NCBI RefSeq assembly: GCF_009604375.1
Contig: NZ_WEGH01000002.1
Location: 364,073-396,072 of the forward strand
DNA from: Actinomadura macrotermitis
GTDB lineage: Bacteria; Actinomycetota; Actinomycetes; Streptosporangiales; Streptosporangiaceae
Direction: 5' to 3'
Length of the DNA: 32,000 nt
Shown: piece after piece, positions 6,268-31,313 of the stretch
Position numbering within the stretch: position 1 is the stretch's first letter
How the letters are laid out: each line of letters opens with the position of its first letter
Translations under genes and position numbers: made by a program
The notes under the pieces: model-generated
The model's database searches: none
Seen by the model: only the letters and a program-made list of their open reading frames with translations
Told to the model about the DNA's origin: nothing

Positions 6268-7043
6268 CGCCCTGTCCCTCCCGCCATCCATGCCGAGAAC
6301 CGGCGCCTGCCGTAGAGCAGCGGTTCCCCCGCCAGGATCTCGGCGCCGACCACCTCGCCGAGCACCACCGCATGGTCGCCGACGTCGAGCATCCCGGCCA
6401 CGGCGCACTCGGCCACGGCGAGGGCGTCGGACTCCAGCCACGGAAGCCCCTCCGCCCCGGTAGGCCGCCAGTCGACGTGGGCGAACCGGTCGGCCACGGG
6501 GGAGGCGAAGATCTCCGCGGCCCGGCGGGCCCCGGCGTTCAGCAGGTTGACCGCGAAGCTCTGCCGCGTCGTGATCGCCTCCAGGGTGGTGCTCCCGGCC
6601 TTCAGGCACACCAGCAGGGTCGGCGGTGAGAGGGTGACGCTGCACAACGAGGAACAGGTGGCCCCCCGCGGCAGCATGTCCGCGCCGATGCTCGTCACGA
6701 CCGCCACGCCGGTCGGGAACGCACTCATCAGCGACCGGTAGGCGTCCAGCCCGACATGGCGGCGCCCGGATCCGGCCGGCCCGGAGGCGGCGGGCGACGC
6801 CGCGATCGCGATGGAGCGCAGCGAACTGTAGGCATCGGGCGGGTCGTCCGGATCCCATGCGGTGTGGAACTCCGCCTCCACCCTGTCGAGCAGGGACACC
6901 AGCGTCAGCGAGTCGACGCCGAGGCTCAGGAGCGTCGCGTCGCCGTCCACCGGCAGGTCGGCGGGATGCTCGTCCCAGACCTCTTTGAGTAACGATCGAA
7001 GGCGGTCGAGGACGTGCTCGAGTTCGGCGCCTTTGGTGCTCAT
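6264..7043 (-). CDS. fusion protein: N-terminal acyl/peptidyl carrier domain + C-terminal HpaC/RebF-like flavin reductase domain
   Basis: Residues 1-85 form a carrier domain with the phosphopantetheine motif LSLGVDSLTLVSLLD (Ser45 codon at 6909-6911). An Ala/Ser/Gly/Pro linker follows. Residues ~100-259 match the flavin-reductase-like domain pattern (YRSLMSAFPTGVAVVTS...SSLCSVTLSPPTLLVCL...FAVNLL...DRF...GDHAVVLGEV). ATG at 7043 follows GGAGGAACC. Confidence 0.85.
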   Translation of the reverse strand: MSTKGAELEHVLDRLRSLLKEVWDEHPADLPVDGDATLLSLGVDSLTLVSLLDRVEAEFHTAWDPDDPPDAYSSLRSIAIAASPAASGPAGSGRRHVGLDAYRSLMSAFPTGVAVVTSIGADMLPRGATCSSLCSVTLSPPTLLVCLKAGSTTLEAITTRQSFAVNLLNAGARRAAEIFASPVADRFAHVDWRPTGAEGLPWLESDALAVAECAVAGMLDVGDHAVVLGEVVGAEILAGEPLLYGRRRFSAWMAGGTGR

Positions 7044-7054
7044 GGTTCCTCCTG

Positions 7055-8566
7055 TCACGAGCGGGGACCGGCGAGGCCGGCGGCGTGGCAGGCCGCTTCC
7101 GTGCGAAGGTGCCGCCGGGTCACCTTGCCCGCCGGGTTGCGCGGCAGCTCCCGGACGACCTTGAATCCGACCGGGCGCTTGTACAAGGCGAGCCGCTCGC
7201 GGACCAGCCCCTTGAGCGACGCGACGAACTCCGCGGCCTCGCCCGGGGCCTCGCCGGGGGCGACGACATAGGCGAACGGCAGCTCGCCCCATTCGTCGCT
7301 CGGCACGCCGACGACGCACGCGTCCCGCACTCCGGGATGCTCCAGGAGCACGCGCTCGACCTCCGCGGGGAAGATCTTCTGCCCGCCGCGGATGATCACT
7401 TCCTTCACCCGCCCGGCGAGGTGGACGTACCCGTGCTCGTCCACCGTGCCCAGGTCGCCCGTGCGGACCCAGCCGTCGCGCACGGCCTCCTCGGTGGCGG
7501 CGGAATCGTTCCAGTACCCGCGCATCCGGCCCGGCCCGCACACCCACAGCTCGCCGTCGTCGCGGCTCTCCACGACCGTGCCCATGATCGCCCGGCCGAC
7601 CGAGGCGCCCGCGCCCCGGGGGACCGCCGACGTGTAGTCGTGCTCGGACGGGGCGAGGGTCGCCACCGGCCCGCCGCCCTCGGTGATGCCGTACACCTGG
7701 CGGAATCCGCACCCGAGCGTCGCGTGCGCCTCCAGGAGCAGGGGACGCGGCATCGGCGCCGCCGCGTAGACGACCTCCCGGAGGCTCGGCAGGCTCGCGG
7801 ACGAGCGCTTTGCGGCCTGTAGGACGAACCTCAGCATCTCCGGCACCAGGAACAGGTGCGTCGCCTCCGCCCGGCGGATCGTGGCGAGGCAACCGGGCGG
7901 GCTGAACATCCGCATGAGGACGATGGTCGCGCCGGCGGCCATGTAGACGAGCGGCAGCACCATCGCCCCGTGGGACAAGGGGCCGCAGTGCAGGAACACG
8001 GTGTCGCCGCCGGGATCGACGTCGGCCAGGTAGCCCGTCGCCACCGACCGCAGCGACCGGTGGTCGACGCAGACGCCCTTCGGACGGCCCGTCGTCGCCG
8101 AGGTATGCAGGATGAACATCAGCTCGTCGTCGGGGATGTCGAGCGGCGGCGGCCGGTCCCCGCTCGCGACGGCGTCCCGGTACCGGCCGCTCTCGAACGC
8201 GAGCACGGAGCAGCCGGCCGGGCGGGAGAGCCTGCGCAAAAGCTCCTCTTCACCCGCGATCGCCGAGGTCTCGCATCCCGCGACGATCGCCGCCACCTCG
8301 TCCGGGACGGCGCCGTAGTGGACGGGGACCGCGATCGCCCCCACCTTGCCGAGCGCGAAGTAGGTCTCCAGTACCTCAAGGCGGTTGTGCGAGAGGACCG
8401 CGACCCGGTGGCCGCGTCCGACGCCCATCGCGTGGAACGCGGCGGCCAGGCCGTCGGTCCGCCGGTCCAGTTCCGCGTAGGTGACACGCCGGTCCGCGTC
8501 GATGACCGCGACGCGCTCACCGTGGCGCTGCCGGCCTCGCTCCGATAACCGCGCCATCCAGGCCAT
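7055..8566 (-). CDS. AMP-dependent synthetase/ligase (FadD / acyl-CoA synthetase / FAAL type adenylating enzyme)
   Basis: AMP-binding motifs are present: LHTSATTGRPKGV, YGITEGG, WVRTGDLGTVDEHGYVHLAGRVKEVIIRGGQKIFPAEVE and a C-terminal PRNPAGKV. RBS is GAGGAGGGG. 503 aa. The motifs look like acyl-CoA-ligase type rather than an NRPS A-domain. Confidence 0.9.
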   Translation of the reverse strand: MAWMARLSERGRQRHGERVAVIDADRRVTYAELDRRTDGLAAAFHAMGVGRGHRVAVLSHNRLEVLETYFALGKVGAIAVPVHYGAVPDEVAAIVAGCETSAIAGEEELLRRLSRPAGCSVLAFESGRYRDAVASGDRPPPLDIPDDELMFILHTSATTGRPKGVCVDHRSLRSVATGYLADVDPGGDTVFLHCGPLSHGAMVLPLVYMAAGATIVLMRMFSPPGCLATIRRAEATHLFLVPEMLRFVLQAAKRSSASLPSLREVVYAAAPMPRPLLLEAHATLGCGFRQVYGITEGGGPVATLAPSEHDYTSAVPRGAGASVGRAIMGTVVESRDDGELWVCGPGRMRGYWNDSAATEEAVRDGWVRTGDLGTVDEHGYVHLAGRVKEVIIRGGQKIFPAEVERVLLEHPGVRDACVVGVPSDEWGELPFAYVVAPGEAPGEAAEFVASLKGLVRERLALYKRPVGFKVVRELPRNPAGKVTRRHLRTEAACHAAGLAGPRS

Positions 8567-8594
8567 CGTGGTGGTCCCCTCCTCGTGCGGGCCG

Positions 8595-9419: not shown

Positions 9420-9455
9420 GTGCCCATTTTAAGTGGGCACACGCCCACTCGTCAA
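9411..9455 (-). promoter_or_regulatory. near-consensus leaderless promoter with two embedded palindromes
   Basis: The minus strand reads TTGACG-AGTGGGCGTGTGCCCACT-TAAAAT-GGGCAC-ATG. The -35 is at 9450-9455, the 18-nt spacer is a 7-bp-arm palindrome (9432-9449), and the -10 is at 9426-9431. The ATG follows 6 nt later. A second palindrome TGGGCA-nn-TGCCCA (9413-9426) spans the start codon. Confidence 0.6.
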
Positions 9456-10765
9456 TGGGGTTCGACGAGGGCGAGGGCATGGCCGCGCAGCTCCTCCTCG
9501 GCCGTCGTCTCCACCCGGGCCATCGCCAGGCGCAGGACGGGCGGCGCCATCAGCGACGTGATGATCGCGACCAGCACGACGATCGTGTAGCTCGCGGTGC
9601 TCAGCACCCCCAGGCGCAGCCCCACCGTGGCCACCACGACCTCGACCACCCCGCGGGCGTTCAGCCCCGCCCCCAGGGCCAGCGCCTCCCACCGGTTCAG
9701 GCCGCCCAGCAGCGCCCCGGCGAAGGCGCCGGCGAACTTGCCCGCGACCGCCAGCAGCAGGACGGCCAGCCCCGTCCAGAGCACCAAGGGCCGTCCGAGC
9801 GCCGTCAGGTCCATGCGCAGCCCGGCGGCGGCGAAGAAGACCGGAGCGAGGAAGCTCGTCACGAGCGAGCGCAGCGGCGCGAGCCGCTCCGCGCTCACCG
9901 CACCGGTGGAGCCGATGACGATCCCGCCCAGGAACGCGCCGAAGATCGGCTCCAGCCCGAGGGCATGGGTGCCCGCCGCCGCCAGCAGCATCAGCGCGAT
10001 CATCGTCGGAACCGAACGATCCTGCGTCCCCGGCCGGGCCGACCACCCCAGCAGCGGGCCGGCCACCGGACGGGCCGCGAACGCCAGCACCACGACCAGC
10101 AGCAGGGCGCCGGCCGAGGCCGCGACCCCCACGGCGGTCACCCCGGTCGCGGCCATCGCCGACACGACCGACAGCAGCAGCCAGCCCGCCGCGTCGTCCA
10201 CCATCCCGGCCGTCAGTGTGAGCTGGCCGATGTCACGGTGCAGCAGCCCCATGTCCGCCAGCGTCCTGGCGATGACGGGGATCGCGCTGACGCACATCGC
10301 CACACCGAGGAAGAACGCGAAGACCCGGCGATCGGCGCCGTCCGCCATCAGGGCCCCGGGCAGCAGGAAGCCCGCACCGACGCCGAGCGCCAGCGGGACG
10401 GCCAGGCCGGACAGGCTGACCCTGACCGCCACCGCCCCTTGCCTGCGCATCAGCGCGAAGTCGAGCTGGGCACCGGTGACACCGACGAGGAGCAGCACAC
10501 CGATCTGCCCGAAGGCGTCGAGAAGGTGGAACTGCGCCGGATCCTTCGGCAGCAGCCATCCGGAAAGGGCGGGCGCGACGTGGTCGAGCAGCGACGGCCC
10601 GAGCAGCACACCGGCCAGCAGCTCCCCCGCGACGGTGGGCATCGCGAGCCGCGCCGCCAGGCGGCCGAGCACCACGGCGGACGCGAGCAGCAGCCCGACC
10701 TGGAGGAGGAACACCAGCATCGGGTGCGCGGCCAGCGGTGCGACAGGGGCGGCGGAGAGCACCAC
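9452..10765 (-). CDS. cation:proton antiporter (CPA2 / Na+/H+-exchanger family membrane protein)
   Basis: The protein is hydrophobic throughout, with multiple predicted TM spans. The N-terminal LGRLAARLAMPTVAGELLAGVLLGPSLL is characteristic of KefB/NapA-type exchangers. The GTG start follows AGGAGA, which overlaps the stop of the upstream small ORF. Confidence 0.8.
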   Translation of the reverse strand: MVLSAAPVAPLAAHPMLVFLLQVGLLLASAVVLGRLAARLAMPTVAGELLAGVLLGPSLLDHVAPALSGWLLPKDPAQFHLLDAFGQIGVLLLVGVTGAQLDFALMRRQGAVAVRVSLSGLAVPLALGVGAGFLLPGALMADGADRRVFAFFLGVAMCVSAIPVIARTLADMGLLHRDIGQLTLTAGMVDDAAGWLLLSVVSAMAATGVTAVGVAASAGALLLVVVLAFAARPVAGPLLGWSARPGTQDRSVPTMIALMLLAAAGTHALGLEPIFGAFLGGIVIGSTGAVSAERLAPLRSLVTSFLAPVFFAAAGLRMDLTALGRPLVLWTGLAVLLLAVAGKFAGAFAGALLGGLNRWEALALGAGLNARGVVEVVVATVGLRLGVLSTASYTIVVLVAIITSLMAPPVLRLAMARVETTAEEELRGHALALVEPH

Positions 10766-10774
10766 GGGCGTCTC

Positions 10775-11035
10775 CTATGCCTGACGGTCCAGCCGGGACC
10801 AGAACTCGCGTTCCCGCGGGCTCAGCGCGGCATAGGGAACGAGCCGCTCGGGGTGGCCGTCCGGAGGCGGCTCGGCCGGGATCGGCTCCTCCTGCGCCCC
10901 CTCACCGGCGAAGCCGTCCCGCTCCTGGCGCAGATAGAGCACCATGTCATAGGGAAAGCCCATCATCATGCAGTTCATGGCCATCGCCAAACCGAACTCA
11001 TGCAGCAGCCGGCGGGCCATCCTGCGTAAGTCCAT
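10775..11035 (-). CDS. small hypothetical protein (86 aa), Met-rich N-terminus, translationally linked to the antiporter
   Basis: ATG 11035 is preceded by AAAGGGGAG-N5. The TAG stop lies inside the antiporter RBS. The sequence MDLRRMARRLLHEFGLAMAMNCMMMGFPYDM... matches no recognised family. Confidence 0.5.
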   Translation of the reverse strand: MDLRRMARRLLHEFGLAMAMNCMMMGFPYDMVLYLRQERDGFAGEGAQEEPIPAEPPPDGHPERLVPYAALSPREREFWSRLDRQA

Positions 11036-11151
11036 CACGGCTCCCCTTTCTTCATGCGATTCCACCAATGAGTCACAGTGCCGGAGGGAGCCGGTCGCAA
11101 TGAACCCCCAATAGTGGGGGCTGCCCAAATTCGAGTTCACGCGCTAGGGGT

Positions 11152-11185
11152 TTTACGCGCACACGGCGGGCCGTACTGTTGGCCG
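11152..11185 (+). promoter_or_regulatory. putative leaderless promoter of kynU (TTTACG-N16-TACTGT-N6-ATG)
   Basis: Hexamers lie at 11152-11157 and 11174-11179. No Shine-Dalgarno sequence precedes ATG 11186. Confidence 0.4.
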
Positions 11186-12436
11186 ATGACCGATCCGTAT
11201 ATGGAAGAAGCCAGGCGATTGGACGCGGCCGATTCTCTTTCGGGTTTCCGGGACAGGTTCGTGATCACCGATCCCGGCATCGCCTATCTGGACGGGAACT
11301 CACTGGGCCGGCTGCCGCGGTCCACCCGCGACCGGCTGCGCGCGCTCGTCGACGAATGGGGCGCGGACCTGATCGACGGCTGGCGGCGGTGGCTGCCGGC
11401 CGGCCGCGAGGCGGGCGACCTCGTCGCACGGATCGTCGGCGCCGAGCCGGGCGAGGTCGTGCTGTCCGACTCGACCGGCGTCAACCTGTACAAGCTGGCC
11501 GTCGCAGCGCTGGACGCCCGGCCGGGACGCGATGTGATCGTCGCCGCCGCCGACGACTTCCCCACCGACCGGTACATCCTGGACGGCATCGCCGCGGCGC
11601 GCGGGCTCAAGGTGCGGTGGCTCGGCTCCGGCCTCGACGACGCCGTGCGACCGGCCGACGTGGAGGCCGCGCTGGACGCCCGGGTCGCGCTGGTGTGCCT
11701 GTCCCACGTGGCGTACCGGTCCGGCGCGGTGGCCGACCTCGCCGGGGTGACGAAAGCGGCGCACCGGCACGGCGCGCTGGTGCTGTGGGACCTGTGCCAC
11801 TCCGCCGGCGCCGTCCAGGTCGGGCTGTCCGCCGCCAACGCGGACCTCGCGGTCGGCTGCACCTACAAGTATCTGAACGGCGGGCCGGGCGCACCCGCCT
11901 TCCTGTACGTGCGGCGGAAGCTCCAGCCCCTGCTGCGGCAGCCGATCTGGGGCTGGTTCGGGCAGACCGACCAGTTCGCCATGGGGCCGGACTACCGGCC
12001 GGTGCCGGCGATCGAACGCTTCCTCGTCGGCACTCCCCCGGTGCTGGCCGGCCATGCGGCGCTGGAAGGGGCGCGCCTGACGGCCGAGGCCGGGATCGAG
12101 GCCATCGCGGCCAAGGCGCGGAGCCTGACCGGGTACGCGCTGCGGCTGGCCGACGCCTGGCTGGCACCGCTCGGGTTCCGGGTCGCCTCGCCTCGCGACG
12201 GGCGGCGGCGCGGCGCCCACCTGACCTTGCACCATCCCTCCGCCTGGCCCGTGTGCCAGGCGGCGAAATCGGCCGGGGTGATCCCGGACTACCGTGCACC
12301 CCAGCGGCTCCGGCTCGGCTTTCCGCCGCTGTACACCCGCCACATCGACGTGCACAGCGGATTGTCGCGGCTGCGCGACGTCGCGGCGACCGGCCGGTAC
12401 AGGGACTTCCCTGACGACCCGAAGGGACTGACATGA
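11186..12436 (+). CDS. kynU: kynureninase (PLP-dependent, aminotransferase class V fold)
   Basis: The N-terminus has FRDRFVI...IYLDGNSLG. The PLP-lysine motif GCTYKYLNGGPGAPAF is the kynureninase signature. 416 aa. There is no RBS, and the ATG lies 6 nt after a TACTGT -10 box. Confidence 0.9.
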   Translation: MTDPYMEEARRLDAADSLSGFRDRFVITDPGIAYLDGNSLGRLPRSTRDRLRALVDEWGADLIDGWRRWLPAGREAGDLVARIVGAEPGEVVLSDSTGVNLYKLAVAALDARPGRDVIVAAADDFPTDRYILDGIAAARGLKVRWLGSGLDDAVRPADVEAALDARVALVCLSHVAYRSGAVADLAGVTKAAHRHGALVLWDLCHSAGAVQVGLSAANADLAVGCTYKYLNGGPGAPAFLYVRRKLQPLLRQPIWGWFGQTDQFAMGPDYRPVPAIERFLVGTPPVLAGHAALEGARLTAEAGIEAIAAKARSLTGYALRLADAWLAPLGFRVASPRDGRRRGAHLTLHHPSAWPVCQAAKSAGVIPDYRAPQRLRLGFPPLYTRHIDVHSGLSRLRDVAATGRYRDFPDDPKGLT

Positions 12437-13321: not shown

Positions 13322-14920
13322 TCAGCGGCCGTGAATGGCCCGCAGCAGCTCGTAGTTGCTGGGCAGCGTCTCGGCATACTCCCGCTGGCGGCGCTTGACC
13401 TCATCGAACAGCGGTTCCGCCGCGCGCACCGACTCCGGCTTGTAGGCCAGTGCCGGAAGCGGCCGGTCGGGCAGGAATCCCATCCCGGTGAAGATGCAGT
13501 AATAGCTGCCGTTGGTCCAGAAGTTACGGAACTCCGTTTCGAAGTTGCCGTAGTAGTCGCTCTCGCCCGTGATCGGCTGGTTGATCGCGAGCCCGGCCTT
13601 GTACATCGCCATCTTCTCCTGGATGGCGTCGGACAGCTTGAGTTCTTTGTTGGCCTTCCAGAACTCGGTGTCGATGCGCGGCGAGCAGTAGAAGTGGGCC
13701 TGCAGGAAGTCCCGCGTGTCGTCGAACATCACCTGGATCTCGCGGTTGAAGCGGTCCACGAGGGCCGGGTCGAAGTCGCCGTCCGGGATGAGCTTCGCCA
13801 GCCAGTACAGCGCGGCGTAGGTGAAGTAGATGCCGGTGGACTCCAGCGGCTCGACGAAGCACGAGGCGAGTCCGACGCTGACGCAGTTCTTCACCCAGGC
13901 CCGGCGGTTGCGGCCGACGCGGAACCTGACGTGGTTGAACGTCTCCTTCTCAGGGTCCAGGCCCCACATCCGGCTGAACTCCTCGGTCGCCTCGTCCTGG
14001 GAGGCGAACCGGCTGGAGTACACGTAGCCGGTCCCGAACCGGTCCAGCATCGGGATCTTCCAGGTCCAGCCGGACTTCATCGCGATGGACGAGGTGTACG
14101 GCTCGACCCCGAGGCGCTCGTCGTCGTTGGGGATCGCCGTGGCCACCGCGCGGTCGCACAGCAGGTGGTCGCTCATGTCCACGAAGGGCTCGCCCATGGC
14201 CTTGTTGATGAGCAGGCCGCGGAACCCCGAGCAGTCCACGAACAGGTCGCCTTCCAGCACCCTGCCACTGGCGGTGCGCAGGCCGGTGATGTGGCCGCGC
14301 TCGTCCAGCAGCGCCTCCTGCATCGTGTCCTGGACATGCTCGACGCCCTGGCGCCCGGTGGCGAAGCGGCAGAGGAAGTCGGCGACGAGCTGGGCGTCGA
14401 AGTGCCACGCGTACCGGGTGGCACGGCGGCCGTCCAGCCACCGGGGCCCCCGCTTGGCGTCCATCATGGCCGGTTCCGCCATGCAGGCGTAGTCGAAGGG
14501 CTCGTCGGTCTTCCCGGCGTGGTGGCGCTGGAACCAGTAGTGCGACAGCGGGATCTGGTCCTCGTCCGGCAGCAGGCCGAACGGGTGGTGGAACTGGTCG
14601 GGGCGTCCGTCAAGGTCGCGCGGGGTGCTCTGGGACTCACCGGGGCTGCGCCAGTTGATGAACTTGACCGCCAGCTTGAAGGCGGCGTTGCATTCGCGCA
14701 TCCACTCGTCCTCGGGGATGCCGAGGTAGTCGAAGAACGCCCGCTGCAGGTTCGGCACGGTCGCCTCGCCGACGCCGATGCGCGGGATCGAAGGGGCCTC
14801 CAGCACCGTGATGTCCACGGTGCCCTGTAAGGCCTTGCCCAGATAGGACGCGGCCATCCAGCCGGCCGTCCCCCCGCCGAGAATGACGATCTTCTTGATG
14901 CGGTTGCCGAAGGCGTCCAT
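13322..14920 (-). CDS. flavin-dependent tryptophan halogenase, RebH/PrnA-like (Trp 7-halogenase clade)
   Basis: [19 protein letters not shown] (GxGxxG), catalytic Lys context [21 protein letters not shown] (WxWxIP) and [11 protein letters not shown] (catalytic Glu) are present. Near-colinear similarity along the whole length to my recollection of RebH and PrnA. 532 aa. Confidence 0.93.
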
Positions 14921-16641: not shown

Positions 16642-17931
16642 TCACTCCGGCGCGAGCGAGGGCATCGCCCTGCGATCGGGCAGCACGCCCAGCTGGAAGA
16701 GCCTGTCCAGCGGCCCGAGGCGGCGCATGCCGAGGCCCGACATGTTGTAGGTCGTCAGATAGCTGAGCCGCGCGCTCCTGGCCGTGCCGGACAGCAGCCG
16801 CCGGCCCAGCAGCCGGCCGCCGCGCGACGTGGAGGTCATCATGCGCGCGGCGTTGTGGCTCATCGCGTGGACGTCGCCGATCCTGCCCATCCGCTGGTCC
16901 TCGTAGCCGCGCAGCGCCCCGTCCACCGCCGCGCCGTCACCAAAGTCGATGCCGGAGAGCCGGGCGGCGAGCGCGTGCGCGTCGCCGATGGCCGTGTTCA
17001 TCCCCTGGGCGGCCAGGGGATGCACGCTGTGCGCGGCCTCACCGATCAGGGCGATGCCGGGCCGCGCCAGCGACGCGGCCACGTACCGCCAGACCTTCAG
17101 CAGCTGGCGGCGGTCCAGGCCGCCGGGGATCGCGGACGCGAGCGGGCCGAGCGCGGGCACCTGACCGACGAGTTCCGCGGTCCACCGCCGCAGCCGGTCC
17201 GCCCCACCTCCCCTCATCTCGTCCGCCGTCACCTGGACATAGACGCGTGTCGCCCCCTCCGGCAGCGGATAGACCATGACCAGCCCGCGGTCGGTGACAT
17301 AGGCGGACACCTCGCCGGCGACCGGCGGCGGGCACGGCAGCTCGAAGGTCAGGAGCCGGTGACCGTAGGCGACGGGCTCCGCCGCGATCCCCGCCGACCT
17401 GCGCAGCCGCGAGGACATGCCGTCCGCCGCCACGACGAGCCGCGCGCCGATGTCGCGCGTGGCGCCGCCCTCGGTGACCCGCACTCCGGCGACACGGCCG
17501 CCGGGGTCCCTGATGACGTCGTCCACCAGGACACCGCGCCGCCACCGCACCGTCGGGCCCAGCGACTCCCCGAGGCACTCCAGGATCGTCGTGTAGTGGT
17601 GGGACAGCATCCAGGACCGCTCGCCGCCGAGCGCCCCGAAGTCCATGGCCAGCAGTTCGGCGCCGTCCGCCCTCCTGGCGACGAGCCGGTCGATGCGGAC
17701 CGCCCGCCTGGCCTCCAGCGTGCGGAGCACGTCCCACCCCTGCAGGATGTCCAGCGAGCCGGGCTGGAGGACCTCGCCCTTCGCGATCGGGGGCTGCCGG
17801 CGCTTCTTGTCCAGCAGGACCACGTCCAGCCCGAGCCTGCCGAGGGCGTTGGCCGCCGCCAGGCCCGCGACGCCTGATCCGCAGATCACGACGTCGGCGT
17901 CCAGGGGTTGCGGCGCGTATCCCGTTGTCAT
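16642..17931 (-). CDS. FAD-dependent monooxygenase (group A), squalene-epoxidase-like signature; candidate terminal-olefin epoxidase
   Basis: Motifs: GxGxxG (VVICGSGVAGLAAA), AKGEVLQPGS (compare squalene epoxidase GELLQPGG), DG motif AADGMSSRLRR, and GD motif GEAAHSVHPLAAQGMNTAIGDA. ATGA overlap with the cyclase stop. 429 aa. Confidence 0.8.
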   Translation of the reverse strand: MTTGYAPQPLDADVVICGSGVAGLAAANALGRLGLDVVLLDKKRRQPPIAKGEVLQPGSLDILQGWDVLRTLEARRAVRIDRLVARRADGAELLAMDFGALGGERSWMLSHHYTTILECLGESLGPTVRWRRGVLVDDVIRDPGGRVAGVRVTEGGATRDIGARLVVAADGMSSRLRRSAGIAAEPVAYGHRLLTFELPCPPPVAGEVSAYVTDRGLVMVYPLPEGATRVYVQVTADEMRGGGADRLRRWTAELVGQVPALGPLASAIPGGLDRRQLLKVWRYVAASLARPGIALIGEAAHSVHPLAAQGMNTAIGDAHALAARLSGIDFGDGAAVDGALRGYEDQRMGRIGDVHAMSHNAARMMTSTSRGGRLLGRRLLSGTARSARLSYLTTYNMSGLGMRRLGPLDRLFQLGVLPDRRAMPSLAPE

Positions 17932-19655: not shown

Positions 19656-19689
19656 GGGACCACCCTCGTCTTCCCTCGCTTCGTATCGG

Positions 19690-20754
19690 TCAACGCAGAC
19701 GCTCCGCCCGTGCCGGCGTGAACGACAGGACCGCCCCCGCGCCGTCCGGCCCGGCGGCACCGGGCGTGTGCGCGCGGTCGCCCGGCGGGAACTCGTGCGC
19801 GGAACGCATCGCCCGCTGGGTGCCGAGGGTGACCGCGAGCATCGGCAGGAGGAGCGCGATCGCCACCGGCAAGCCGAGGCCCGGCACGAGCAGAGCGTCC
19901 GCGAGCACGAGCCGTTCGGCGACGAGCACCTCGTGCGACCGCAGGGCGGCGCGCCACGGCGGGACGCGCCCGGGGACGAAGAGCACCCTGAACGCGTGGC
20001 AGCCGAGCGCCGCGGCGACCAGGGTCACGGCGAGCGACGTCCACCGGCCGCCCGGCACCACCAGGAGTCCCGCCACCGCCGCCGCGACGGCCACGCCGTA
20101 GAGCGCGACGGCGGCCCACGCCCCCGCCCGGACGCCGTGACGCACGGCGAAGGTGGCATAGCCGCCCTCGCGGTCCCCGGCGACGTCGCGCAGCGTCCCG
20201 ACCAGGTTCGAGGCGGCGTCGTGCGCCGAGAACACCAGCACGAACGGAAGCAGCCCGATCGGCGGCGCGGACGTGGCCATCATCGCGCCGAACAGGAGCG
20301 CGCCACCGGTGAGGGCGCCGCGCACGAGGTTGCCCCACAGTCCCCGCGCCTTGAAGAAGCCGTTGTAGGCGACCGCGCCTCCGATGCCGCCCGCCAAGAT
20401 CAGGAGCGTGCGCCAGTTGACGATCAGCGCGACCGCGCAGGCCCCCGCCGCGAGGATCACCCCGCAGGCGAGCGCGGTCGAGGGCCGCAACTGCCCCGAC
20501 GGGATGGGCCGCTGCGGTTTCCCGATCGCGTCGAGGTCGCGGTCGAGGTAGTCGCCCAGGTAGTGCGCCGCGATCCAGACCAGGGTCGGGACCAGCCACG
20601 CGACGAGCGGGCCCGCCGCCTGCCGCCCGCCGCCGGCGATCTCGCGGGTCAGGCTCTCGCCGGCCAGCCCCACCAGGCCGACGTACCAGAGGGTGTAGGG
20701 CCGCCATGTCCGCAGGTGGGCGGTGAGCGTCCTTCGGAACCGGTGGCCGCTCAT
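19690..20754 (-). CDS. UbiA-superfamily membrane prenyltransferase (ChlG/BchG/DGGGP-synthase-like Asp-rich motifs)
   Basis: First Asp-rich motif is HYLGDYLDRDLDAIGKPQRPIPSGQL and the second is LRDVAGDREGG. The protein has multiple hydrophobic TM segments. The ATG abuts the upstream TGA (TGAATG). 354 aa. Confidence 0.88.
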   Translation of the reverse strand: MSGHRFRRTLTAHLRTWRPYTLWYVGLVGLAGESLTREIAGGGRQAAGPLVAWLVPTLVWIAAHYLGDYLDRDLDAIGKPQRPIPSGQLRPSTALACGVILAAGACAVALIVNWRTLLILAGGIGGAVAYNGFFKARGLWGNLVRGALTGGALLFGAMMATSAPPIGLLPFVLVFSAHDAASNLVGTLRDVAGDREGGYATFAVRHGVRAGAWAAVALYGVAVAAAVAGLLVVPGGRWTSLAVTLVAAALGCHAFRVLFVPGRVPPWRAALRSHEVLVAERLVLADALLVPGLGLPVAIALLLPMLAVTLGTQRAMRSAHEFPPGDRAHTPGAAGPDGAGAVLSFTPARAERLR

Positions 20755-21789
20755 TCAGAACCGCCTCCGGGCCGCGTAGTCCGCGATCCCCGCCAGCGTG
20801 ACGACGCTCTCGCAGGCCGGAAGAGCCGTGAGGCGGTCCTTGGCCTGGCGGATCAGCCCGGCGGCGACCTCCCCGGCCGCCTCCCGGGCGCCCGTCGCCT
20901 CCAGGACCTCGCTCACCACGGCGTAGGACCTGTCCGCCGGCTGGTCTTCGTGGAAGGCACGCGCCAGCCTCTTGCGCTCGTCGGCGGAGGCGCGCTGGTA
21001 TCCCAGCAGGATCGGCAGGGTGGGGCGATGGTTGTGCAGATCGCTTTCCTGGGGCTTGCCGATGAGCGCGGACGTGCCGTCGAACGCCAGCAGGTCGTCA
21101 CGGATCTGGAAGGCGACGCCCAGGCGGCTCCCGAAGACGCCCAGCGCCTCGACCCACTCCTGCGGAGCGTCGCCGAGGATCGCACCCGCCCGGCAGGACG
21201 CCTCGAACAGCGCCCCCGTCTTCAGCCCGGCCATCGTCAGATACCGGTCGACCCCGCACTCCAGGTCGCCGACGAGCTCGGTCTCCATGAGCTGCCCGCG
21301 GCACACGCTCAGCCCGGCCTCGGCCGTGACGTTCACGAGCGCCACGACGGCGTCCGCCGGGACGTCCCCGGGCAGCGGGCCCGTCAGGGCCGCGAAGGTC
21401 TCCAGCAGCAGCCCGTCTCCGGCGACGATGGCGGACGCGAGGCCGAAGGCCGCCTGGACCGAGGGGCGGCCCCGGCGCATGTCGTCCTCGTCGATGATGT
21501 CGTCGTGGACCAGCGTCGCGACGTGCAGGTACTCCAGGGCGAGGGCCGGCCGGGCCAGGTCCTCGGGACGGCCGCCGACGCACCGTGCCGACTCGAGCAC
21601 CAGCAGCGGCCGGAGCAGCTTGCCCGCCGGCACCAGGGCGTACTCCGAGATGCGGTCCAGCAGGTTGTCGTGGCGGCCCTGCCAGAGCCCGAGCAGGTCG
21701 CGTTCCAGAAGGTCGCGGCCCTCCAGGAACGCGGCCGGGTCCGGCCGCCCGGCCGCTCGTAAGTGTGCGTCTTCGTCGATCGTGCTCAT
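20755..21789 (-). CDS. trans-polyprenyl diphosphate synthase (IspB/GGPPS-like)
   Basis: FARM LVHDDIIDEDDMRRG and SARM FQIRDDLLAFDG are present. ATGA overlap with the FAH-gene stop. 344 aa. Confidence 0.92.
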   Translation of the reverse strand: MSTIDEDAHLRAAGRPDPAAFLEGRDLLERDLLGLWQGRHDNLLDRISEYALVPAGKLLRPLLVLESARCVGGRPEDLARPALALEYLHVATLVHDDIIDEDDMRRGRPSVQAAFGLASAIVAGDGLLLETFAALTGPLPGDVPADAVVALVNVTAEAGLSVCRGQLMETELVGDLECGVDRYLTMAGLKTGALFEASCRAGAILGDAPQEWVEALGVFGSRLGVAFQIRDDLLAFDGTSALIGKPQESDLHNHRPTLPILLGYQRASADERKRLARAFHEDQPADRSYAVVSEVLEATGAREAAGEVAAGLIRQAKDRLTALPACESVVTLAGIADYAARRRF

Positions 21790-23829: not shown

Positions 23830-23838
23830 GATTCCGCA

Positions 23839-23880
23839 ACATTGCCTGAGACCGGCGAGTTCCGACCACCCCGATAAAGA
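23839..23880 (-). promoter_or_regulatory. degenerate copy D of the shared element, facing the nine-gene operon
   Basis: The minus strand reads TCTTTATCGGGGTGGTCGGAACTCGCCGGTCTCAGGCAATGT, followed by 9 nt and then ATG 23829. TTATCGGGGTGGTCG resembles TAATCAGGAATGGTCC of copy B, and CAATGT resembles CAAAGT. Confidence 0.35.
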
Positions 23881-24057: not shown

Positions 24058-26640
24058 ATGCTATATGACCCACCGGCGGCGGTCATCGCCCCGGCCGGCA
24101 GAATCGACCGCTCCCTCCGGGCAGAGGCACGCCGCACCGCATTTCTCTTCCAGGACGGGGTGATGCTGGCCTCCGCGGTCCGGGCGCTGGATGCGTTCGG
24201 GCTGCTCGACGGCGCACCGTACGGCAAGGGCGACCTCCCCGACAGCGGATATCTGCGCGCTCTCTGGCGCGGCCTGGCCGCCGCCGGCTGGATCGACCCC
24301 GCCCCCTCCCCCGCCTGGACCGAACGCGGCCGGAACGCGCTTCGGAACCGCTCGCGCTATGTCGCCGGCGGCCGGTTCCTCGCCCGCTTCGACGACAACG
24401 CGCCCGACTCCTGGGCCAGGCCCTGGGACGGCCCGGCCGAAGCCGCCTTCGCCGAAGCGCTCGACACGCACGAGACGTGGCGCCGCACCGCCGACCCGGA
24501 CGCGCCGGGCACCGTCCACCTCGACGCGCCCCTCGCCCTTCCCGCGATCCTGACGCTGCACGGGACGGGACGCCTCCACCGCCCCGGCGGGGACTTCGCC
24601 CGCCTCTTCCGGCTCCTCGGCTGGCTCGGCCCCGACGGCGCGTGGACCCCGCGGGGACGGGCGGGTCTCGACTTCGCCGGCCACTGCGGCCTCATCGGCT
24701 CCTACCTTCCGATGCTGAGCCGGCTGGAACCGCTGTTACGCGGCGAGCTGCTCGTCGTCCCGGGGGACGGCGAGTGGCACTGCCAGCGCCGGATCAACGT
24801 CGAGGCGAGCTCGGCGGCCCACCGGCGGTATTTCACCGACGCCGACCCCGTCATCAGGGAGATCTTCCGGCGCAGGCCGCGGCCCGCGTTCATCGCCGAC
24901 ACGGGGTGCGGCGACGGGAGCTGGCTGGCCCACCTGCACGGCATGCTCGGCGACGGCATCCGCTACGTCGGCATCGACGTCAGCCCGGTCGCGCTCGACC
25001 GCGCCCGTGCCGTCCTGGAGGCGGCCGGCGTGCCCGACCCGCTGCTGCTGCCGGGGGACGTCACCGACCCCGACGCGCTGGCGAGGCTGCTCACCCGGCA
25101 CGGGCTCGCCATCGAGGACGGGCTGCACATCCGGTCGTTCATCGACCATGACCGCACCTATGCCGGCGGGGACCCCGCCAGCGGCGCACCCGGCCGGTCC
25201 TCAGGCGCCTATGTCTCCCCGGACGGCGCCCCGCTGAGCCCCGCGCAGATCGAGTCGGACCTCGTCCGGCATCTCCGGCGCTGGGCGCCCCACGTCCGCG
25301 AGCACGGCCTCGTCGTCCTGGAGGCGCACAGCGTGGCCCCGCGCCTGGCCCGGCGCCACCCCGGCGCACTGCACTCGGTGGCCCTGGACACCTATCACGC
25401 CCTGTCCCACCAGTACCTCGTGGAGCACTCCGCGTTCCTGCACTGCTGCCGCCTGGCGGGGCTGGAACCCGTGGGCCACCTGGAGCGCCGCTACCCGAGC
25501 GGCCGCCCCTTCGTTGCGGTCTCCCTCAACCATCTGGTGCCCGCCAGGCCGTTCCCCCGCCACGAGCCGGCCGAGCGCCGCGACACCTGGCAGCCGGAGC
25601 CGGGCACGGACCTGGCCGACGGCCGGAAACTCCACGATCTGCTGTTCACCGGCGGTGACCTGACCCGGCCCCGGGGGTGGTGCGCCGGAGCGACCGGGAT
25701 CGTCGTGCGGCATGTGCTGGAGGCCGTGGAGTCCCGCATCGGGCAGGTGCGCCCGGGCGACGCCGTCCGGGTGCTGGACTACGGCGCGGGAACCGGCCTG
25801 GCGTCCATCGAACTGATCAAGGCGTGCGCCGAGCGGGACGTCCCGGGCCGGCTGGCCGAGCGCGGCGCCTCCCTCGAACTGCATCTGGTGGACATCCCAG
25901 GCAGTTGGTTCGCGCAGGGGTTCGCGCTGCTGCGCGACCTGTCATGGACGCGCTTCCACGCGTTACGCGGCGCCGATGGCCGGTTCCGCCCGCTCCTCGA
26001 CGTCACCGCGGGCCGGCAGGTGGACGCGGTGCTGGCGAACATGGTCTTCCACCTGCTCGACGACAAGGCGATGCGCAAGGCCGTGCCCTCCATCGCCGGG
26101 GTGCTGCGGCCGGGAGGCGTCCTCGCGTTCAGCGCGCCCGACCTCGCCGCGCCGGCCGCGGATTCCCTGCTGTTCCACGACGCCAACCGCCTGATGCGCA
26201 GGTACTGGCTCGCCGCCCTTGACGACGAGCGCCCCGAAGCCCTCTCCCCCGTCCTGAGGGAGGCGGCGGCGAGCGTTCGCGGCGTGTCGCGCTCCAGCGC
26301 CCAGCGGCGCGCGGACCGCCGGATCCTGCCGAGACCGCGGCACGGCGACGCGGTCGCCGCGGAGCTGGCACCGTACTTCGCCGGGGCCGTCGAACGCCGT
26401 ACCTACGAGATCCTGGCCGAGGAATGCCTGATGGCCGCGCTCGTTCCGGCCAACCAGCGGGAGTATCTCGCGGAGATCTCCGACCCGGTTCTACGCGAGG
26501 AGGTGATTCGCCATCTCCTCCTCGACCGGGTGCTGCCCGAACTGATGGACGGCCCCGCCGGAACGGCGCACGGGCTCAACCTGGAATGGAAGATCGGCCG
26601 GTTCACCCGAACGGCCCCTAGCACACATGCGGTCGAGTGA
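24058..26640 (+). CDS. 860-aa protein with two class I SAM-methyltransferase domains in tandem plus an N-terminal ~250-aa domain
   Basis: ATG 24058 is preceded by GGAGA-N8. MT motif I number 1 is FIADTGCGDGSW (24889-24924); number 2 is VLDYGAGTG (25771-25797), followed by VLRPGGVLAFSAPD. The 23884 start in the track lies within promoter-like sequence. Confidence 0.75.
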   Translation: MLYDPPAAVIAPAGRIDRSLRAEARRTAFLFQDGVMLASAVRALDAFGLLDGAPYGKGDLPDSGYLRALWRGLAAAGWIDPAPSPAWTERGRNALRNRSRYVAGGRFLARFDDNAPDSWARPWDGPAEAAFAEALDTHETWRRTADPDAPGTVHLDAPLALPAILTLHGTGRLHRPGGDFARLFRLLGWLGPDGAWTPRGRAGLDFAGHCGLIGSYLPMLSRLEPLLRGELLVVPGDGEWHCQRRINVEASSAAHRRYFTDADPVIREIFRRRPRPAFIADTGCGDGSWLAHLHGMLGDGIRYVGIDVSPVALDRARAVLEAAGVPDPLLLPGDVTDPDALARLLTRHGLAIEDGLHIRSFIDHDRTYAGGDPASGAPGRSSGAYVSPDGAPLSPAQIESDLVRHLRRWAPHVREHGLVVLEAHSVAPRLARRHPGALHSVALDTYHALSHQYLVEHSAFLHCCRLAGLEPVGHLERRYPSGRPFVAVSLNHLVPARPFPRHEPAERRDTWQPEPGTDLADGRKLHDLLFTGGDLTRPRGWCAGATGIVVRHVLEAVESRIGQVRPGDAVRVLDYGAGTGLASIELIKACAERDVPGRLAERGASLELHLVDIPGSWFAQGFALLRDLSWTRFHALRGADGRFRPLLDVTAGRQVDAVLANMVFHLLDDKAMRKAVPSIAGVLRPGGVLAFSAPDLAAPAADSLLFHDANRLMRRYWLAALDDERPEALSPVLREAAASVRGVSRSSAQRRADRRILPRPRHGDAVAAELAPYFAGAVERRTYEILAEECLMAALVPANQREYLAEISDPVLREEVIRHLLLDRVLPELMDGPAGTAHGLNLEWKIGRFTRTAPSTHAVE

Positions 26641-26644
26641 CCAT

Positions 26645-27943: not shown

Positions 27944-27951
27944 GGGGCGCC

Positions 27952-28182: not shown

Positions 28183-28225
28183 CCAGCGCGCCCGGTCGTC
28201 GCGCCCGGCCCGGAAAGGATTCCCG

Positions 28226-29464
28226 TTGCCCTTTGACGAACGCGTCCTCACCCCCCGCGAGTCGATGATCGTGGCGTCCGGAGCCAGTCCGGCGTTCATC
28301 ACCGTCACGGCCGAGGGCGGCCTCGACGTCAACGCGCTGGACCGCGCGATGCGACTGCTCGCCGACGCCCATCCGATCCTGCGGACACAGATCGCCCGGA
28401 CGGACGGCGGGAGGTTCGTGCTCCGGGTCATCGCGGGCCGGCCACCGCTCGTGCTCCACGAGGACGGCACGACGTTCAGCGACGTGGTCGGCACGCCCTG
28501 GCGGGTCGGCGAGCGGGCGTCGCGCCTGGTCGTCCTCCGCGAGGGGCGGCGCTGCACGATCGTCCTGGCGATCCACCACGCGGTCGCGGACGGGCGGCTG
28601 ATCACCGCGCTCCTGCAGCGGCTCGTCGAGTACTACGACGCCCTGACCCGCGGTGTCCCGGTGCCCGTCGTCCACCGCGACGACCTGGACCCACCGCTCG
28701 AAGAGGTGCTGCGCCGGGCGGGGCCCCCGCGGGCCGCCCCGCCGCCGCAGACCGCCCCGCCCCCGGAGATCGCCACGCTGGCGCCGCAGTCCGCGCCGGC
28801 GAACGGACCGGTGGGCTTCGGCTTCCGCAACCTCCCGTTCGACCGGGAGACCACGGCCCGGTTCATCGCAGCGGCCAAACGGCACGGGCTGTCGGTCGGC
28901 AGCCTGGTCGCGGGGGTCATGGCGGCATCGCTGCGGGCCCTGCACGAGTCCGGGGAGCCGCTGGTGCTGGCGCTCTGCCTCCAGGTGGACCTGCGCGGCC
29001 GGCTGACGCCGCCGATCCCGCCGGAGGCGGCCATGAGCGCGGTCGGCAGCGTGATCATCAACCTGCCGGTGCCGCCGGGCGCGTCCCCGGCCGAGGTGGG
29101 CGTCCAGGTGGACGGCGAGATGGAGGTCGCCGCGGAGCGCGCGCTCCACCAGGCGCGGCTGCTCGCGGCCGGAAGGCTGGACCTGCCGCGGACCCAGGAG
29201 ATCTCGGTGAGCATCTCCAACCTCGGCCGGCTGGCCTTTCCGTCCACCGCCGGCGACCTCCGGTTCGGGACGATCCGCTCCGTGGCCACCATGCCCTTCA
29301 TGCGCGTCCCCGCCCTGGTCTCCAACACCACGAACGGCTCGCTGAACCTGGACCTCATCTACAACCGCGCGTTTTTGACCGACGAGCTGGTGCGGCGCCT
29401 GACACGGGAAATCGAGAACCGCATGGCAGCGCCGGCCGCGACGGGTGCGAGTTCCCCCGTCTGA
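28226..29464 (+). CDS. stand-alone condensation-domain-like acyltransferase (PapA5 / HHxxxDG family)
   Basis: TTG start at 28226, 6 nt after GGAAAGGA. Catalytic motif IHHAVADGRL (HHxxxDG) at ~residue 118. The N-terminal layout resembles PapA5-type transferases. 412 aa. Confidence 0.72.
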   Translation: MPFDERVLTPRESMIVASGASPAFITVTAEGGLDVNALDRAMRLLADAHPILRTQIARTDGGRFVLRVIAGRPPLVLHEDGTTFSDVVGTPWRVGERASRLVVLREGRRCTIVLAIHHAVADGRLITALLQRLVEYYDALTRGVPVPVVHRDDLDPPLEEVLRRAGPPRAAPPPQTAPPPEIATLAPQSAPANGPVGFGFRNLPFDRETTARFIAAAKRHGLSVGSLVAGVMAASLRALHESGEPLVLALCLQVDLRGRLTPPIPPEAAMSAVGSVIINLPVPPGASPAEVGVQVDGEMEVAAERALHQARLLAAGRLDLPRTQEISVSISNLGRLAFPSTAGDLRFGTIRSVATMPFMRVPALVSNTTNGSLNLDLIYNRAFLTDELVRRLTREIENRMAAPAATGASSPV

Positions 29465-29496
29465 GGCGTTCCCTTCCCTACAGCTGGGAGACAACT

Positions 29497-30666
29497 ATGC
29501 AAGTCACAATGGAACAGGCCGAGCTTCTCATTCTCGCCGCGGGCGGGCGCGAAACCGAACTCGCCGCCGCCATCGAGGAGGTCGGGGCGAAGGCCGTCTG
29601 CTCCCTCGCCGTGGAAGAGCTGGTGTTCCGCTGCCGGCTGCCGTCCAACAAGACCCACGTCCACGTCCGGCTCGACCTGCTCCACGGCGGGGAGAGGTTC
29701 ACCCACACGATCGGCGTGCAGGCCGGCCGGCCGGTCACTCTGGTCGAGGGCGAGCCGGACACGGCCATCTTCCTGCTGGAGTTCGAGCTCGCCGAGCTCG
29801 TCCGGAGCCTCTACGGCCCGCTGCGGGAACGCCGCCCCGGCACGCACCGCAGCAGGCTGCTCGTGGAGCGGCCCACGGCGAAGGCGTTGTACGACGGGCC
29901 GCTGCGCGGGGACTGGTACTCGGTCGGACGCGCGGTCGACACGGTGCTCAGCGGCTGCTCCGCCGGGCCGTCCGACCTCGGCGAGCTGTCGGTCCGGCAC
30001 GGCACCGACAAGTGGGGCACCTGGCACTGGTACACCCCGCACTACGAGCGGCACCTGCGCGCCCTGCGCGGCGAACCGGTGCGGCTGCTGGAGATCGGGA
30101 TCGGCGGGTACGACGACCCCGGCCTCGGCGGCTGGTCGCTGAAGATGTGGAAGGCCTACTTCCCGCGCGGCCTCATGACCGGGCTGGACGTCTTCGCCAA
30201 GCACGGGCTGGACGAGCCCCGGCTGCGCACCGTGCGGGGCGACCAGAACGATCCCGGTTTCCTCCGGGCGTTCGGCGAGGAACACGGGCCGTTCGACGTC
30301 ATCGTGGACGACGGGAGCCACGTCAACGAACACATCCTCACCTCGTTCGAGGCGCTGTTCCGGTACGTCCGGCCGGGCGGCTTCTACATCATCGAGGACA
30401 TCTGGACCGCCTACTGCACCAAGTTCGGCGGGGACGAGAGCCCCGTCTCCCCGCCGACCACGTCGATCGGGATGCTCCAGGCGCTGCTCGACAAGCTGCA
30501 CTACCAGGAGCGGCCGGGCGAGGCGGGCGACGACATCGCCCAGAGCGTGGTGGGCGTGCACGTCTACCACAACATCGCGTTCATCGAGAAGGGCCACAAC
30601 GCCGAGGGCGGGATCGCGCCCGCGGTCTCGCAGCTCTTCGAGTCCTCGCCCTCCACACCGCGATGA
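29497..30666 (+). CDS. SAM-dependent O-methyltransferase, MycE/TylE/OleY-like deoxysugar O-MT with N-terminal auxiliary domain (tentative)
   Basis: HGTDKWGTWHWYTPHYERHL, LLEIGIGGYDDPGLGGWSLKMWKAYFP and DVIVDDGSH match my recollection of that family. RBS GGGAGA. 389 aa. Confidence 0.65.
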   Translation: MQVTMEQAELLILAAGGRETELAAAIEEVGAKAVCSLAVEELVFRCRLPSNKTHVHVRLDLLHGGERFTHTIGVQAGRPVTLVEGEPDTAIFLLEFELAELVRSLYGPLRERRPGTHRSRLLVERPTAKALYDGPLRGDWYSVGRAVDTVLSGCSAGPSDLGELSVRHGTDKWGTWHWYTPHYERHLRALRGEPVRLLEIGIGGYDDPGLGGWSLKMWKAYFPRGLMTGLDVFAKHGLDEPRLRTVRGDQNDPGFLRAFGEEHGPFDVIVDDGSHVNEHILTSFEALFRYVRPGGFYIIEDIWTAYCTKFGGDESPVSPPTTSIGMLQALLDKLHYQERPGEAGDDIAQSVVGVHVYHNIAFIEKGHNAEGGIAPAVSQLFESSPSTPR

Positions 30667-31313
30667 TGAAGATCGAGCCGATGTCCGTCCTGGACGCCTA
30701 CCGCATCACCCCGACGCATCTGGAGGACCGGCGCGGCAGCTTCTACGAGTCGTGGCGGTTCGAGGAGCTGGCCTCCCATCTCGGCCGCCCGTTCGTGGTG
30801 CGCCAGGCCAACTTCTCGGCGTCCAGGCGCAACACGCTGCGCGGCATTCACGGGACCACCAGCCCGCCGGGCCAGGCCAAGCTGGTGACCTGTGTCAGGG
30901 GGGCCGCGCTCGACGTCGTGGTGGACCTGCGCGTGGGCTCGCCGACCTTCGGACGGTTCGACATCACGCCGCAGGAGGCGGAGTCCGGCATCGGCGTCTA
31001 CCTGGCGGACGGGCTCGGCCACGGCTTCCTGGCGCTGACGGACGACACGTGCATGAACTACCTGTGCGACACCGAGTACGTCCACGGAACGATGCTCGAC
31101 ATCCAGGCGCTGGATCCGCAGCTGGGCATTCCGTGGAATCTGGACGGTGAGCCGATCAGGTCGGACAAGGACGCGGCGGCGCCGACGCTGGCCGAAGCGG
31201 CGGCGGCGGGCCTGCTGCCCCGCTACCGGCCGGGCGGCACCCTACCTGGGGAAGAGGAGGCTCATGACGGACGGACGCGTCCCGGTCCGGTTAGGGGTGA
31301 TCGGTTGCGCTGA
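30663..31313 (+). CDS. dTDP-4-dehydrorhamnose 3,5-epimerase family (RmlC-like NDP-hexose epimerase)
   Basis: RGSFYESW, LRGIHG (catalytic His) and GLGHGFLALTDD cupin motifs are present. ATGA overlap with the preceding stop. The 3' end overlaps the next gene by 50 nt. 216 aa. Confidence 0.85.
   Translation: MMKIEPMSVLDAYRITPTHLEDRRGSFYESWRFEELASHLGRPFVVRQANFSASRRNTLRGIHGTTSPPGQAKLVTCVRGAALDVVVDLRVGSPTFGRFDITPQEAESGIGVYLADGLGHGFLALTDDTCMNYLCDTEYVHGTMLDIQALDPQLGIPWNLDGEPIRSDKDAAAPTLAEAAAAGLLPRYRPGGTLPGEEEAHDGRTRPGPVRGDRLR

Follow-up and report, generated by a model that had tools for sequence, protein, structure and literature searches.

Why should a biosynthetic gene cluster in a very GC-rich genome carry eight in-frame TTA (leucine) codons, six of them close to translation starts? 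The question is raised by a 32,000-nt stretch of an actinomycete genome (the window; contig C5:364073-396072), in which a tiancilactone/phenalinolactone-like meroterpenoid cluster, recognised by Pfam domains and synteny, occupies 4195–32000 and continues to ~34462 past the window end. Its core is syntenic with 19 loci of other actinomycetes, the nearest being that of Actinomadura litoris (76–94% protein identity), where synteny spans about -2459 to 34462 in window coordinates. An earlier reading, made from the sequence only, had listed the eight codons and proposed that they tie translation of the pathway to a tRNA like that encoded by bldA of Streptomyces. The observation is confirmed and statistically strong, and the interpretation is partly supported: we put at about an even chance the explanation that the eight TTAs are a selected feature of the cluster, and that at least seven enzymes in all three large operons (DUF6059 to hydrolase, P450 to halogenase, methyltransferase to sugar genes) depend on the supply of the tRNA reading UUA.

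Excess of TTA codons in the cluster

The genome (8.54 Mb, 73% GC, 12 contigs, assembly completeness 99.3%) was annotated by a purpose-written simple codon-model caller, in which TTA was scored as neutral, and 7616 genes covering 87% of the genome were called. In-frame TTA was found ~130 times in 2.48 million codons (about 0.05 per 1000), in 121 of the 7616 genes (1.6%), and UUA was the rarest sense codon of the genome. These numbers contradict a host with relaxed TTA avoidance, which the sequence-only reading had offered as an alternative. The cluster (27 genes, 4195–34462) had 0.83 TTA per 1000 codons, 17 times the genome rate, and the other Leu codons compared were at 1.0 (CTA), 1.4 (TTG) and 2.2 times (CTT) their genome rates. 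No stretch of the genome was richer in TTA than the window: 8 codons lay within 24.3 kb, against 5 in the runner-up 32-kb stretch; 0.49 TTA were expected per 32 kb (Poisson P 5e-8 for the 8 observed, ~1e-5 when corrected for all windows). Within the first 31 codons, 6 of the 84 Leu codons of the cluster were TTA, against 37 of 24,913 elsewhere in the genome (odds ratio 52, P 7e-9), and CTT, TTG and CTA occurred there 5, 2 and 0 times in the cluster. Beyond codon 31, TTA made up 2 of 992 Leu codons in the cluster against 85 of 240,262 (P 0.05). The TTA excess is thus specific to the cluster and to TTA, and far above chance. Comparison with the whole genome in frequency and position bore out the sequence-only reading here, the TTA density of the cluster being unlike that of the genome and the TTA positions being partly conserved in an orthologous cluster.

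A general relaxation of codon bias, or a donor of lower GC content, was rejected as the source of the excess since CTA, CTT, TTG, ATA and AGA were not comparably enriched. Both are also disfavoured by the Actinomadura litoris copy, in which G+C at third codon positions (GC3) was ~97% and TTAs were nevertheless kept.

The density of TTA in the whole genome fell from 0.28 per 1000 in codons 1–10 to ~0.03 beyond codon 150, and the first 31 codons held 33% of the TTAs but 9.5% of all codons. A/T-ending codons in general followed a similar, shallower gradient, from 11.8% in codons 2–11 to 2.9% beyond codon 100. Start-proximal AT enrichment, the other alternative of the earlier reading, therefore explains the position of TTA and part of its conservation, but not the excess confined to the cluster: TTA position follows the general 5′ rule of the genome, and TTA number in the cluster does not. 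Chandra and Chater found genomes outside the Streptomycineae to be without a 5′ TTA bias and without a link between bldA and adpA (PMC4255298); in contrast, the genome studied here appears to have such a bias, some of its starts being uncertain.

These gradients are also the basis of the main rival explanation, a non-adaptive by-product in which a 5′ preference for A/T-ending codons, together with the looser bias of a weakly expressed and possibly mobile cluster, let TTAs arise and persist near gene starts by drift with no regulatory role. We regard it as possible, though rather improbable. It agrees with the two gradients and with the GC3 of the cluster, 0.938 against 0.964 for the genome, and it covers TTA position and part of the conservation. 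The 17- to 52-fold TTA-specific excess is not covered: A/T-ending codons in general were only 1.4–1.9 times enriched, against 17 times for TTA overall and 52 times for TTA among 5′ Leu codons, and the expected number of TTAs was 0.86 when gene GC3 was controlled and 0.82 when GC3 and codon position were both controlled, against 8 observed (P 2.4e-6).

Elsewhere in the genome TTA occurred in LAL/LuxR regulators, a response regulator and nonribosomal peptide synthetase/polyketide synthase genes, as in Streptomyces (functions read from the sequences). Ten high-GC3 genes read among the 121 TTA genes looked accessory, comprising a sugar dehydrogenase, regulators, transporters and glycosyltransferases.

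Reading frames and conservation of the TTA codons

All eight TTAs were in frame in called genes, as the earlier reading had claimed. They lay in 7 of the 29 window genes, and no in-frame TTA was found in the remaining called window genes. The six 5′-proximal ones stood at codons 3, 7, 10, 10, 18 and 31, counted from real ATG starts. On the reverse strand, TTA 6990–6992 (−) was Leu codon 18 of the carrier protein-flavin reductase gene (6264–7043), within the PP-binding domain (Pfam residues 14–79) and behind an ATG with an AGGAGG site, and 8546–8548 (−) was Leu codon 7 of the AMP-dependent ligase gene (7055–8566). TTA 11027–11029 (−) was Leu codon 3 of an ORF of 86 amino acids with a Pfam DUF6059 domain (10775–11035), the first gene of the ligase operon. 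In the tryptophan halogenase gene (13322–14920), 14828–14830 (−) was Leu codon 31, in the motif GKA-L-QG directly after the GGGTAG FAD motif. In the polyprenyl (geranylgeranyl diphosphate, GGPP) synthase gene (20755–21789), the start of which overlapped the stop of the preceding FAH-family gene, 21760–21762 (−) was Leu codon 10. On the forward strand, 24736–24738 (+) and 25963–25965 (+) were Leu codons 227 and 636 of the tandem methyltransferase gene (24058–26640), the former being codon 193 if counted from GTG 24160; alignment with Actinomadura litoris placed the start at ATG 24058. The last, 31291–31293 (+), was Leu codon 10 of a GFO/IDH/MocA-type sugar ketoreductase gene (start 31264, running past the window), in the first Rossmann-fold strand of a protein whose Pfam domain began at residue 9.

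An annotation artefact, with the 5′ TTAs upstream of the true starts and untranslated, is extremely improbable. The caller had mis-set the starts of the kynureninase and methyltransferase genes in the window, some 5′ TTAs in the genome-wide gene calls had weak starts, and the DUF6059 ORF had an in-frame ATG at codon 6 that might bypass its TTA, although a GGGGAG site favoured the first ATG. For the six genes with a 5′ TTA, however, each ATG was preceded by a GGAGG-like Shine-Dalgarno site at normal spacing, and site, ATG and N-terminal residues were kept in Actinomadura litoris, with synonymous differences between ATG and TTA. In the halogenase, carrier protein and ketoreductase the Pfam domain began before the TTA. 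Mis-called starts were ruled out by this conservation, indicating that the six 5′ TTAs are translated.

One further TTA triplet, at 11153–11155 (+), was not a codon. It lay 11 triplets 5′ of the kynureninase start, ATG 11186, which was set by aligning the N-termini from the window, Actinomadura litoris and Polymorphospora; protein-level conservation began only at this ATG, indicating that the triplet is noncoding. It fell in a -35-like element, and Actinomadura litoris had TTG there. This element belonged to a promoter-like pair (TTTACG, 16-nt spacer, TACTGT; window 11150–11186) that ended 6 nt before the ATG and was kept in Actinomadura litoris. No Shine-Dalgarno site was found before ATG 11186, and the kynureninase promoter, judged from these elements, is probably leaderless.

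That the TTA/TAA triplets act in DNA or RNA, as internal promoters, protein-binding or RNase sites and not in decoding, seems very improbable. The noncoding triplet at 11153 lay in a promoter-like element, and three sites shared the context CTTAC. No extended motif was common to the eight sites, however, and all eight were in frame at positions where relatives had Leu (Phe in one); the lineage-specific replacements CTG, TTG and TTC were those expected from codon turnover.

Over 10,928 positions of a codon alignment with Actinomadura litoris, 87% of the amino acids were identical, and where the residue was unchanged the codon was the same in 85% of cases. TTA was identical in both species at ligase codon 7, DUF6059 codon 3, halogenase codon 31 and GGPP synthase codon 10, that is, at 4 of the 8 sites and at 4 of the 6 5′-proximal ones. 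At the four other sites TTA was confined to the window, Actinomadura litoris having CTG at carrier protein codon 18 and at methyltransferase codons 227 and 636, and TTC (Phe) at ketoreductase codon 10. Conversely, TTA was found only in Actinomadura litoris at kynureninase codon 12, where the window had TTG (Leu codon 12, 11219–11221 (+)), and at methyltransferase codon 15, where it had AGA (Arg; 24100–24102 (+), aligned from the common ATG). Each species thus had six genes with a 5′-proximal TTA, four of them in common. The conservation of TTA in orthologous clusters, which the earlier reading had raised, held for half of the codons in the nearest relative, and failed for the other four and for the 9 of 19 related loci without TTA.

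The Actinomadura litoris cluster genes had a GC3 of 0.96–0.99. Near-maximal GC3 together with six 5′ TTAs kept or gained argues that these codons were deliberately kept, and speaks against the by-product explanation. At unchanged residues the window copy had 575 A/T-ending codons and the Actinomadura litoris copy (L083/L084) 251, a 2.3-fold difference that the by-product explanation would accommodate. By these counts, the two copies are under clearly different codon pressure, or under it for different lengths of time.

More distant relatives had TTA at other sites. Seven Streptomyces/Kitasatospora clusters had a common TTA at P450 codon 24, with adjacent synonymous sites varying. Two Streptomyces orthologues of the GGPP synthase had TTA at about codon 26 and not at codon 10, and ligase codon 7 was not TTA in the Streptomyces orthologues. 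We count these TTAs in favour of a selected throttle, as probable independent recurrence. TTA at halogenase codon 31 was found in Actinomadura litoris and in one metagenome halogenase (L103), with CTA in Polymorphospora. An ancient, widespread TTA in tryptophan halogenases was rejected, since among 79 other species representatives Actinomadura litoris alone had TTA at this codon (1/79).

The tRNA reading UUA and a possible translational throttle

The RpoB protein of the host was 91% identical to that of Actinomadura litoris, 90–92% to those of other Actinomadura/Spirillospora, and 83% to that of one Streptomyces. Being far nearer Actinomadura litoris than Streptomyces by this measure, the host is an Actinomadura-like member of the Thermomonosporaceae and not a Streptomyces.

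The sequence-only reading had asked whether a tRNA-Leu(UAA) gene exists, and two were found by ARAGORN and Rfam, at C9:159196-159271 (+) and C1:2174847-2174923 (−). Both tRNAs were of 76–77 nt with a short variable region, i.e. type I, and the surroundings of both genes were ordinary chromosomal. A long-arm (type II) tRNA with a UAA or CAA anticodon, and with it a bldA orthologue, was not found in the assembly (ARAGORN, Rfam RF00005, pattern scan). By its predicted architecture, the reader of UUA is not a bldA orthologue. At position 33 the C1 copy had C where U is near-universal, a feature shared with the single copy found in Actinomadura litoris and with copies in two further genomes of the family. 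The C9 copy had U33, was 77% identical to the C1 copy, and found its closest matches in the sample in other families. Full-length matches to the short tRNA were present in 61 of 121 sampled genomes of the class Actinomycetes (the window's genome included), and UAA was the anticodon of each of the five best matches from other genomes. A type II UAA tRNA was also not found in Actinomadura litoris, which had a short type I tRNA(UAA) instead. In Streptomyces genomes, by comparison, the long-arm bldA gene was present and the short form was used for CAA.

In keeping with this, the leucyl-tRNA synthetase of S. coelicolor charges type I tRNA-Leu(CAA) as well as type II tRNA-Leu(UAA) (PMC6614811). The idea that the short tRNAs are non-Leu "mistranslating" tRNAs was set aside, since leucylation of type I tRNA-Leu is known from Streptomyces coelicolor (PMC6614811) and the form with a UAA anticodon occurs widely in the class. 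Further short tRNAs (74–77 nt) with the Leu anticodons GAG, CAG (two adjacent genes) and CAA were seen at C1:1271205-1271356 and C1:329972-330046, and long-arm tRNA-Leu genes coexist with them for GAG, CAG and UAG. From these gene predictions, CAA seems to be like UAA in being served here by a type I tRNA only.

If the TTAs act on translation, the effect would follow from the rarity of UUA. A ribosome reaching the codon soon after initiation would wait for a scarce tRNA, and a pause at codons 3–31 would block trailing ribosomes and could lead to drop-off. Protein output would stay low, with little waste, until the tRNA became plentiful, and early placement would give the greatest effect. In E. 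coli, the limiting effect of the rare codons AGA/AGG is strongest close to the initiation codon. Each large operon had at least two TTA codons, and where genes overlap (FAH-family/GGPP synthase, carrier protein/P450) the downstream genes would be restrained too. In such a scheme tRNA(UAA) would be limiting or regulated, and pauses at TTA would lower protein output; we infer both.

A role of TTA in opening 5′ mRNA structure had no support in in-silico swaps. The ribosome-binding region was predicted to be no less accessible with CTG in place of TTA, so that 5′ mRNA opening does not explain the choice of TTA, and codons 18 and 31 lie beyond the initiation region. That start sites are predicted to be no more accessible with TTA than with CTG also counts against the by-product explanation.

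In Streptomyces, bldA-type control rests on a tRNA that growth does not require and whose late accumulation delays the expression of TTA genes; TTA occurs in ~2% of genes and is absent from those essential for growth, and sites of the bldA regulon include adpA and pathway regulators such as actII-ORF4 and redZ. The genome studied here resembles this system in being very GC-rich, in having TTA as its rarest codon, in the concentration of TTA in secondary-metabolism and regulatory genes, and in the 5′ bias. It differs in the tRNA: bldA is a single long-arm type II tRNA (PMC6614811), whereas this genome and Actinomadura litoris use a short type I tRNA(UAA). The proposal of a bldA-like gate over several genes therefore stands as far as the rarity of TTA, its excess and the presence of a UAA tRNA are concerned, but not for its bldA-like part, the host not being Streptomyces and the tRNAs being type I, duplicated and not bldA-like.

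A closer parallel is the moenomycin cluster of Streptomyces ghanaensis, in which production depends on bldA through UUA codons in two structural genes, moeO5 and moeE5; in a bldA mutant the MoeE5 protein was not detected, and moe transcripts were not reduced (PMC3814723), the step blocked being translation and not transcription. As there, the genes with rare TTAs encode key biosynthetic enzymes and no pathway activator; here these include the GGPP synthase, halogenase, ligase, carrier protein, methyltransferase and ketoreductase. The differences are that the sequence here shows seven TTA genes in three operons, against two genes there, and that six of the eight TTAs come no later than codon 31; that a TetR gene at the edge of the cluster makes it not strictly regulator-free; and that the host is Actinomadura-like, with a type I and duplicated tRNA(UAA). 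Rare codons also limit expression in other bacteria, as with an AGA codon in pyoluteorin regulation of Pseudomonas protegens (PMC4836200). This case and that of AGA/AGG in E. coli concern another codon, tRNA and phylum, and single genes or regulators, not a whole pathway. By analogy, the TTA pattern looks selected and resembles the TTA/bldA control known from structural genes, but the host is Actinomadura-like and its tRNA is duplicated and of another type.

Several points weigh against a selected throttle. The genome-wide TTA counts depend on a simple gene caller. Retention of 5′ TTA in Actinomadura litoris (4/6) was not significantly above that of other 5′ A/T-ending codons (binomial P about 0.2): these were retained at 41–49% in the first 31 codons, against 16–19% elsewhere, so that the TTA retention is not significant by itself and is also close to what the by-product explanation predicts. 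The two internal TTAs, both in the methyltransferase, were not conserved. In-frame TTA was absent from 9 of the 19 related loci, including that of the tiancilactone producer CB03234 (21.8 kb examined), which indicates that a TTA gate is dispensable for the pathway and again suits the by-product explanation. The tRNA(UAA) gene is duplicated, and two genes argue against a single scarce switch. Finally, comparative work doubts that bldA-type control reaches beyond the Streptomycineae (PMC4255298).

The dependence on tRNA(UAA) favoured above would have a stronger form, which we put forward only tentatively and hold to be doubtful: that a rare-codon lock evolved independently in the Thermomonosporaceae, with type I tRNA-Leu(UAA) limiting for a whole pathway, and that selection keeps about six 5′ TTAs per cluster, lost ones being replaced in other genes. 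Until now, UUA control of secondary metabolism has been regarded as confined to Streptomyces and its nearest relatives. The marks of such control, namely an extremely rare codon that is biased towards 5′ ends, concentrated in biosynthetic and regulatory genes and conserved with turnover, are seen here in another actinomycete order with a structurally different tRNA, and an independent lock, if real, would mean that UUA control of secondary metabolism is not peculiar to the bldA/adpA circuit of Streptomyces. If the TTAs throttle translation, the cluster would be silent or weak wherever tRNA(UAA) is scarce, including common heterologous hosts and bldA mutants, and recoding eight codons or co-expressing the tRNA would be a cheap activation of an uncharacterised pathway to a chlorinated, glycosylated meroterpenoid.

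Content of the cluster and neighbouring features

Pfam assigned to the cluster a chloro-anthranilate branch (tryptophan halogenase, tryptophan 2,3-dioxygenase, a kynurenine formamidase-like hydrolase and kynureninase) and loading functions (AMP-ligase and the carrier protein fused to flavin reductase). The terpenoid core comprised the polyprenyl (GGPP) synthase, a UbiA prenyltransferase, an FAD epoxidase and a squalene-hopene-type (type II) cyclase; there were also TauD and FAH-family enzymes, four P450s, a ferredoxin, the tandem methyltransferase, a PapA-type acyltransferase and deoxysugar genes. The UbiA, FAD_binding_3/SE and SQHop_cyclase genes were adjacent at 16642–20754 (Pfam), with 70–74% identity in synteny with Streptomyces sp. 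CB03234, a strain linked in the literature with tiancilactones. The tiancilactone (CB03234)/phenalinolactone systems share with the window the UbiA prenyltransferase, epoxidase, type II cyclase, TauD and FAH-family genes and P450s (63–87% identity to the CB03234 locus), and the window cluster adds the tandem methyltransferase, PapA-type acyltransferase and deoxysugar genes. Tiancilactones presumably carry a chloroanthranilate unit, which would fit the halogenase and kynurenine genes. By gene content the cluster is tiancilactone/phenalinolactone-like, and its additional tailoring genes point to another end product.

The TetR-family gene (3583–4182) was the sole regulator near the cluster and was kept beside it in many relatives; no SARP, LAL or StrR-type activator was found within the syntenic block. 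A tRNA-Arg(GCG) reported by ARAGORN at 18084–18157 (−), within the cyclase gene, was not among the Rfam tRNA matches of the genome and is almost certainly a false positive. A Na+/H+ antiporter gene inside the cluster (9452–10765) had no counterpart in the compared Actinomadura litoris stretch; in the Polymorphospora relative (L102) an antiporter gene sat elsewhere, between the TauD and dioxygenase genes. The UbiA prenyltransferase and type II cyclase of this Polymorphospora sp. locus were fused into one protein of 926 amino acids (L102 2756–5536).

Immediately 5′ of the first P450 gene of the terpenoid operon (window 23830–23860; compared in loci L002–L019), a motif, CAGATCGGAAT, was kept in nearly all Streptomyces, Kitasatospora and Micromonosporaceae relatives, and the window and Actinomadura litoris read GTTGCGGAATC in its place. 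The conserved motif could represent an operator, or else a ribosome-binding region of an unusual kind.

Three further TTA genes lay 17–25 kb upstream (C5:337109-347987). One encodes an NB-ARC/TPR protein, the second, with its TTA at codon 15, a glucose-1-phosphate thymidylyltransferase, and the third, where TTA is codon 377, a LAL/LuxR regulator. They may be part of a neighbouring cluster, or may supply sugar and regulation to the cluster studied here.

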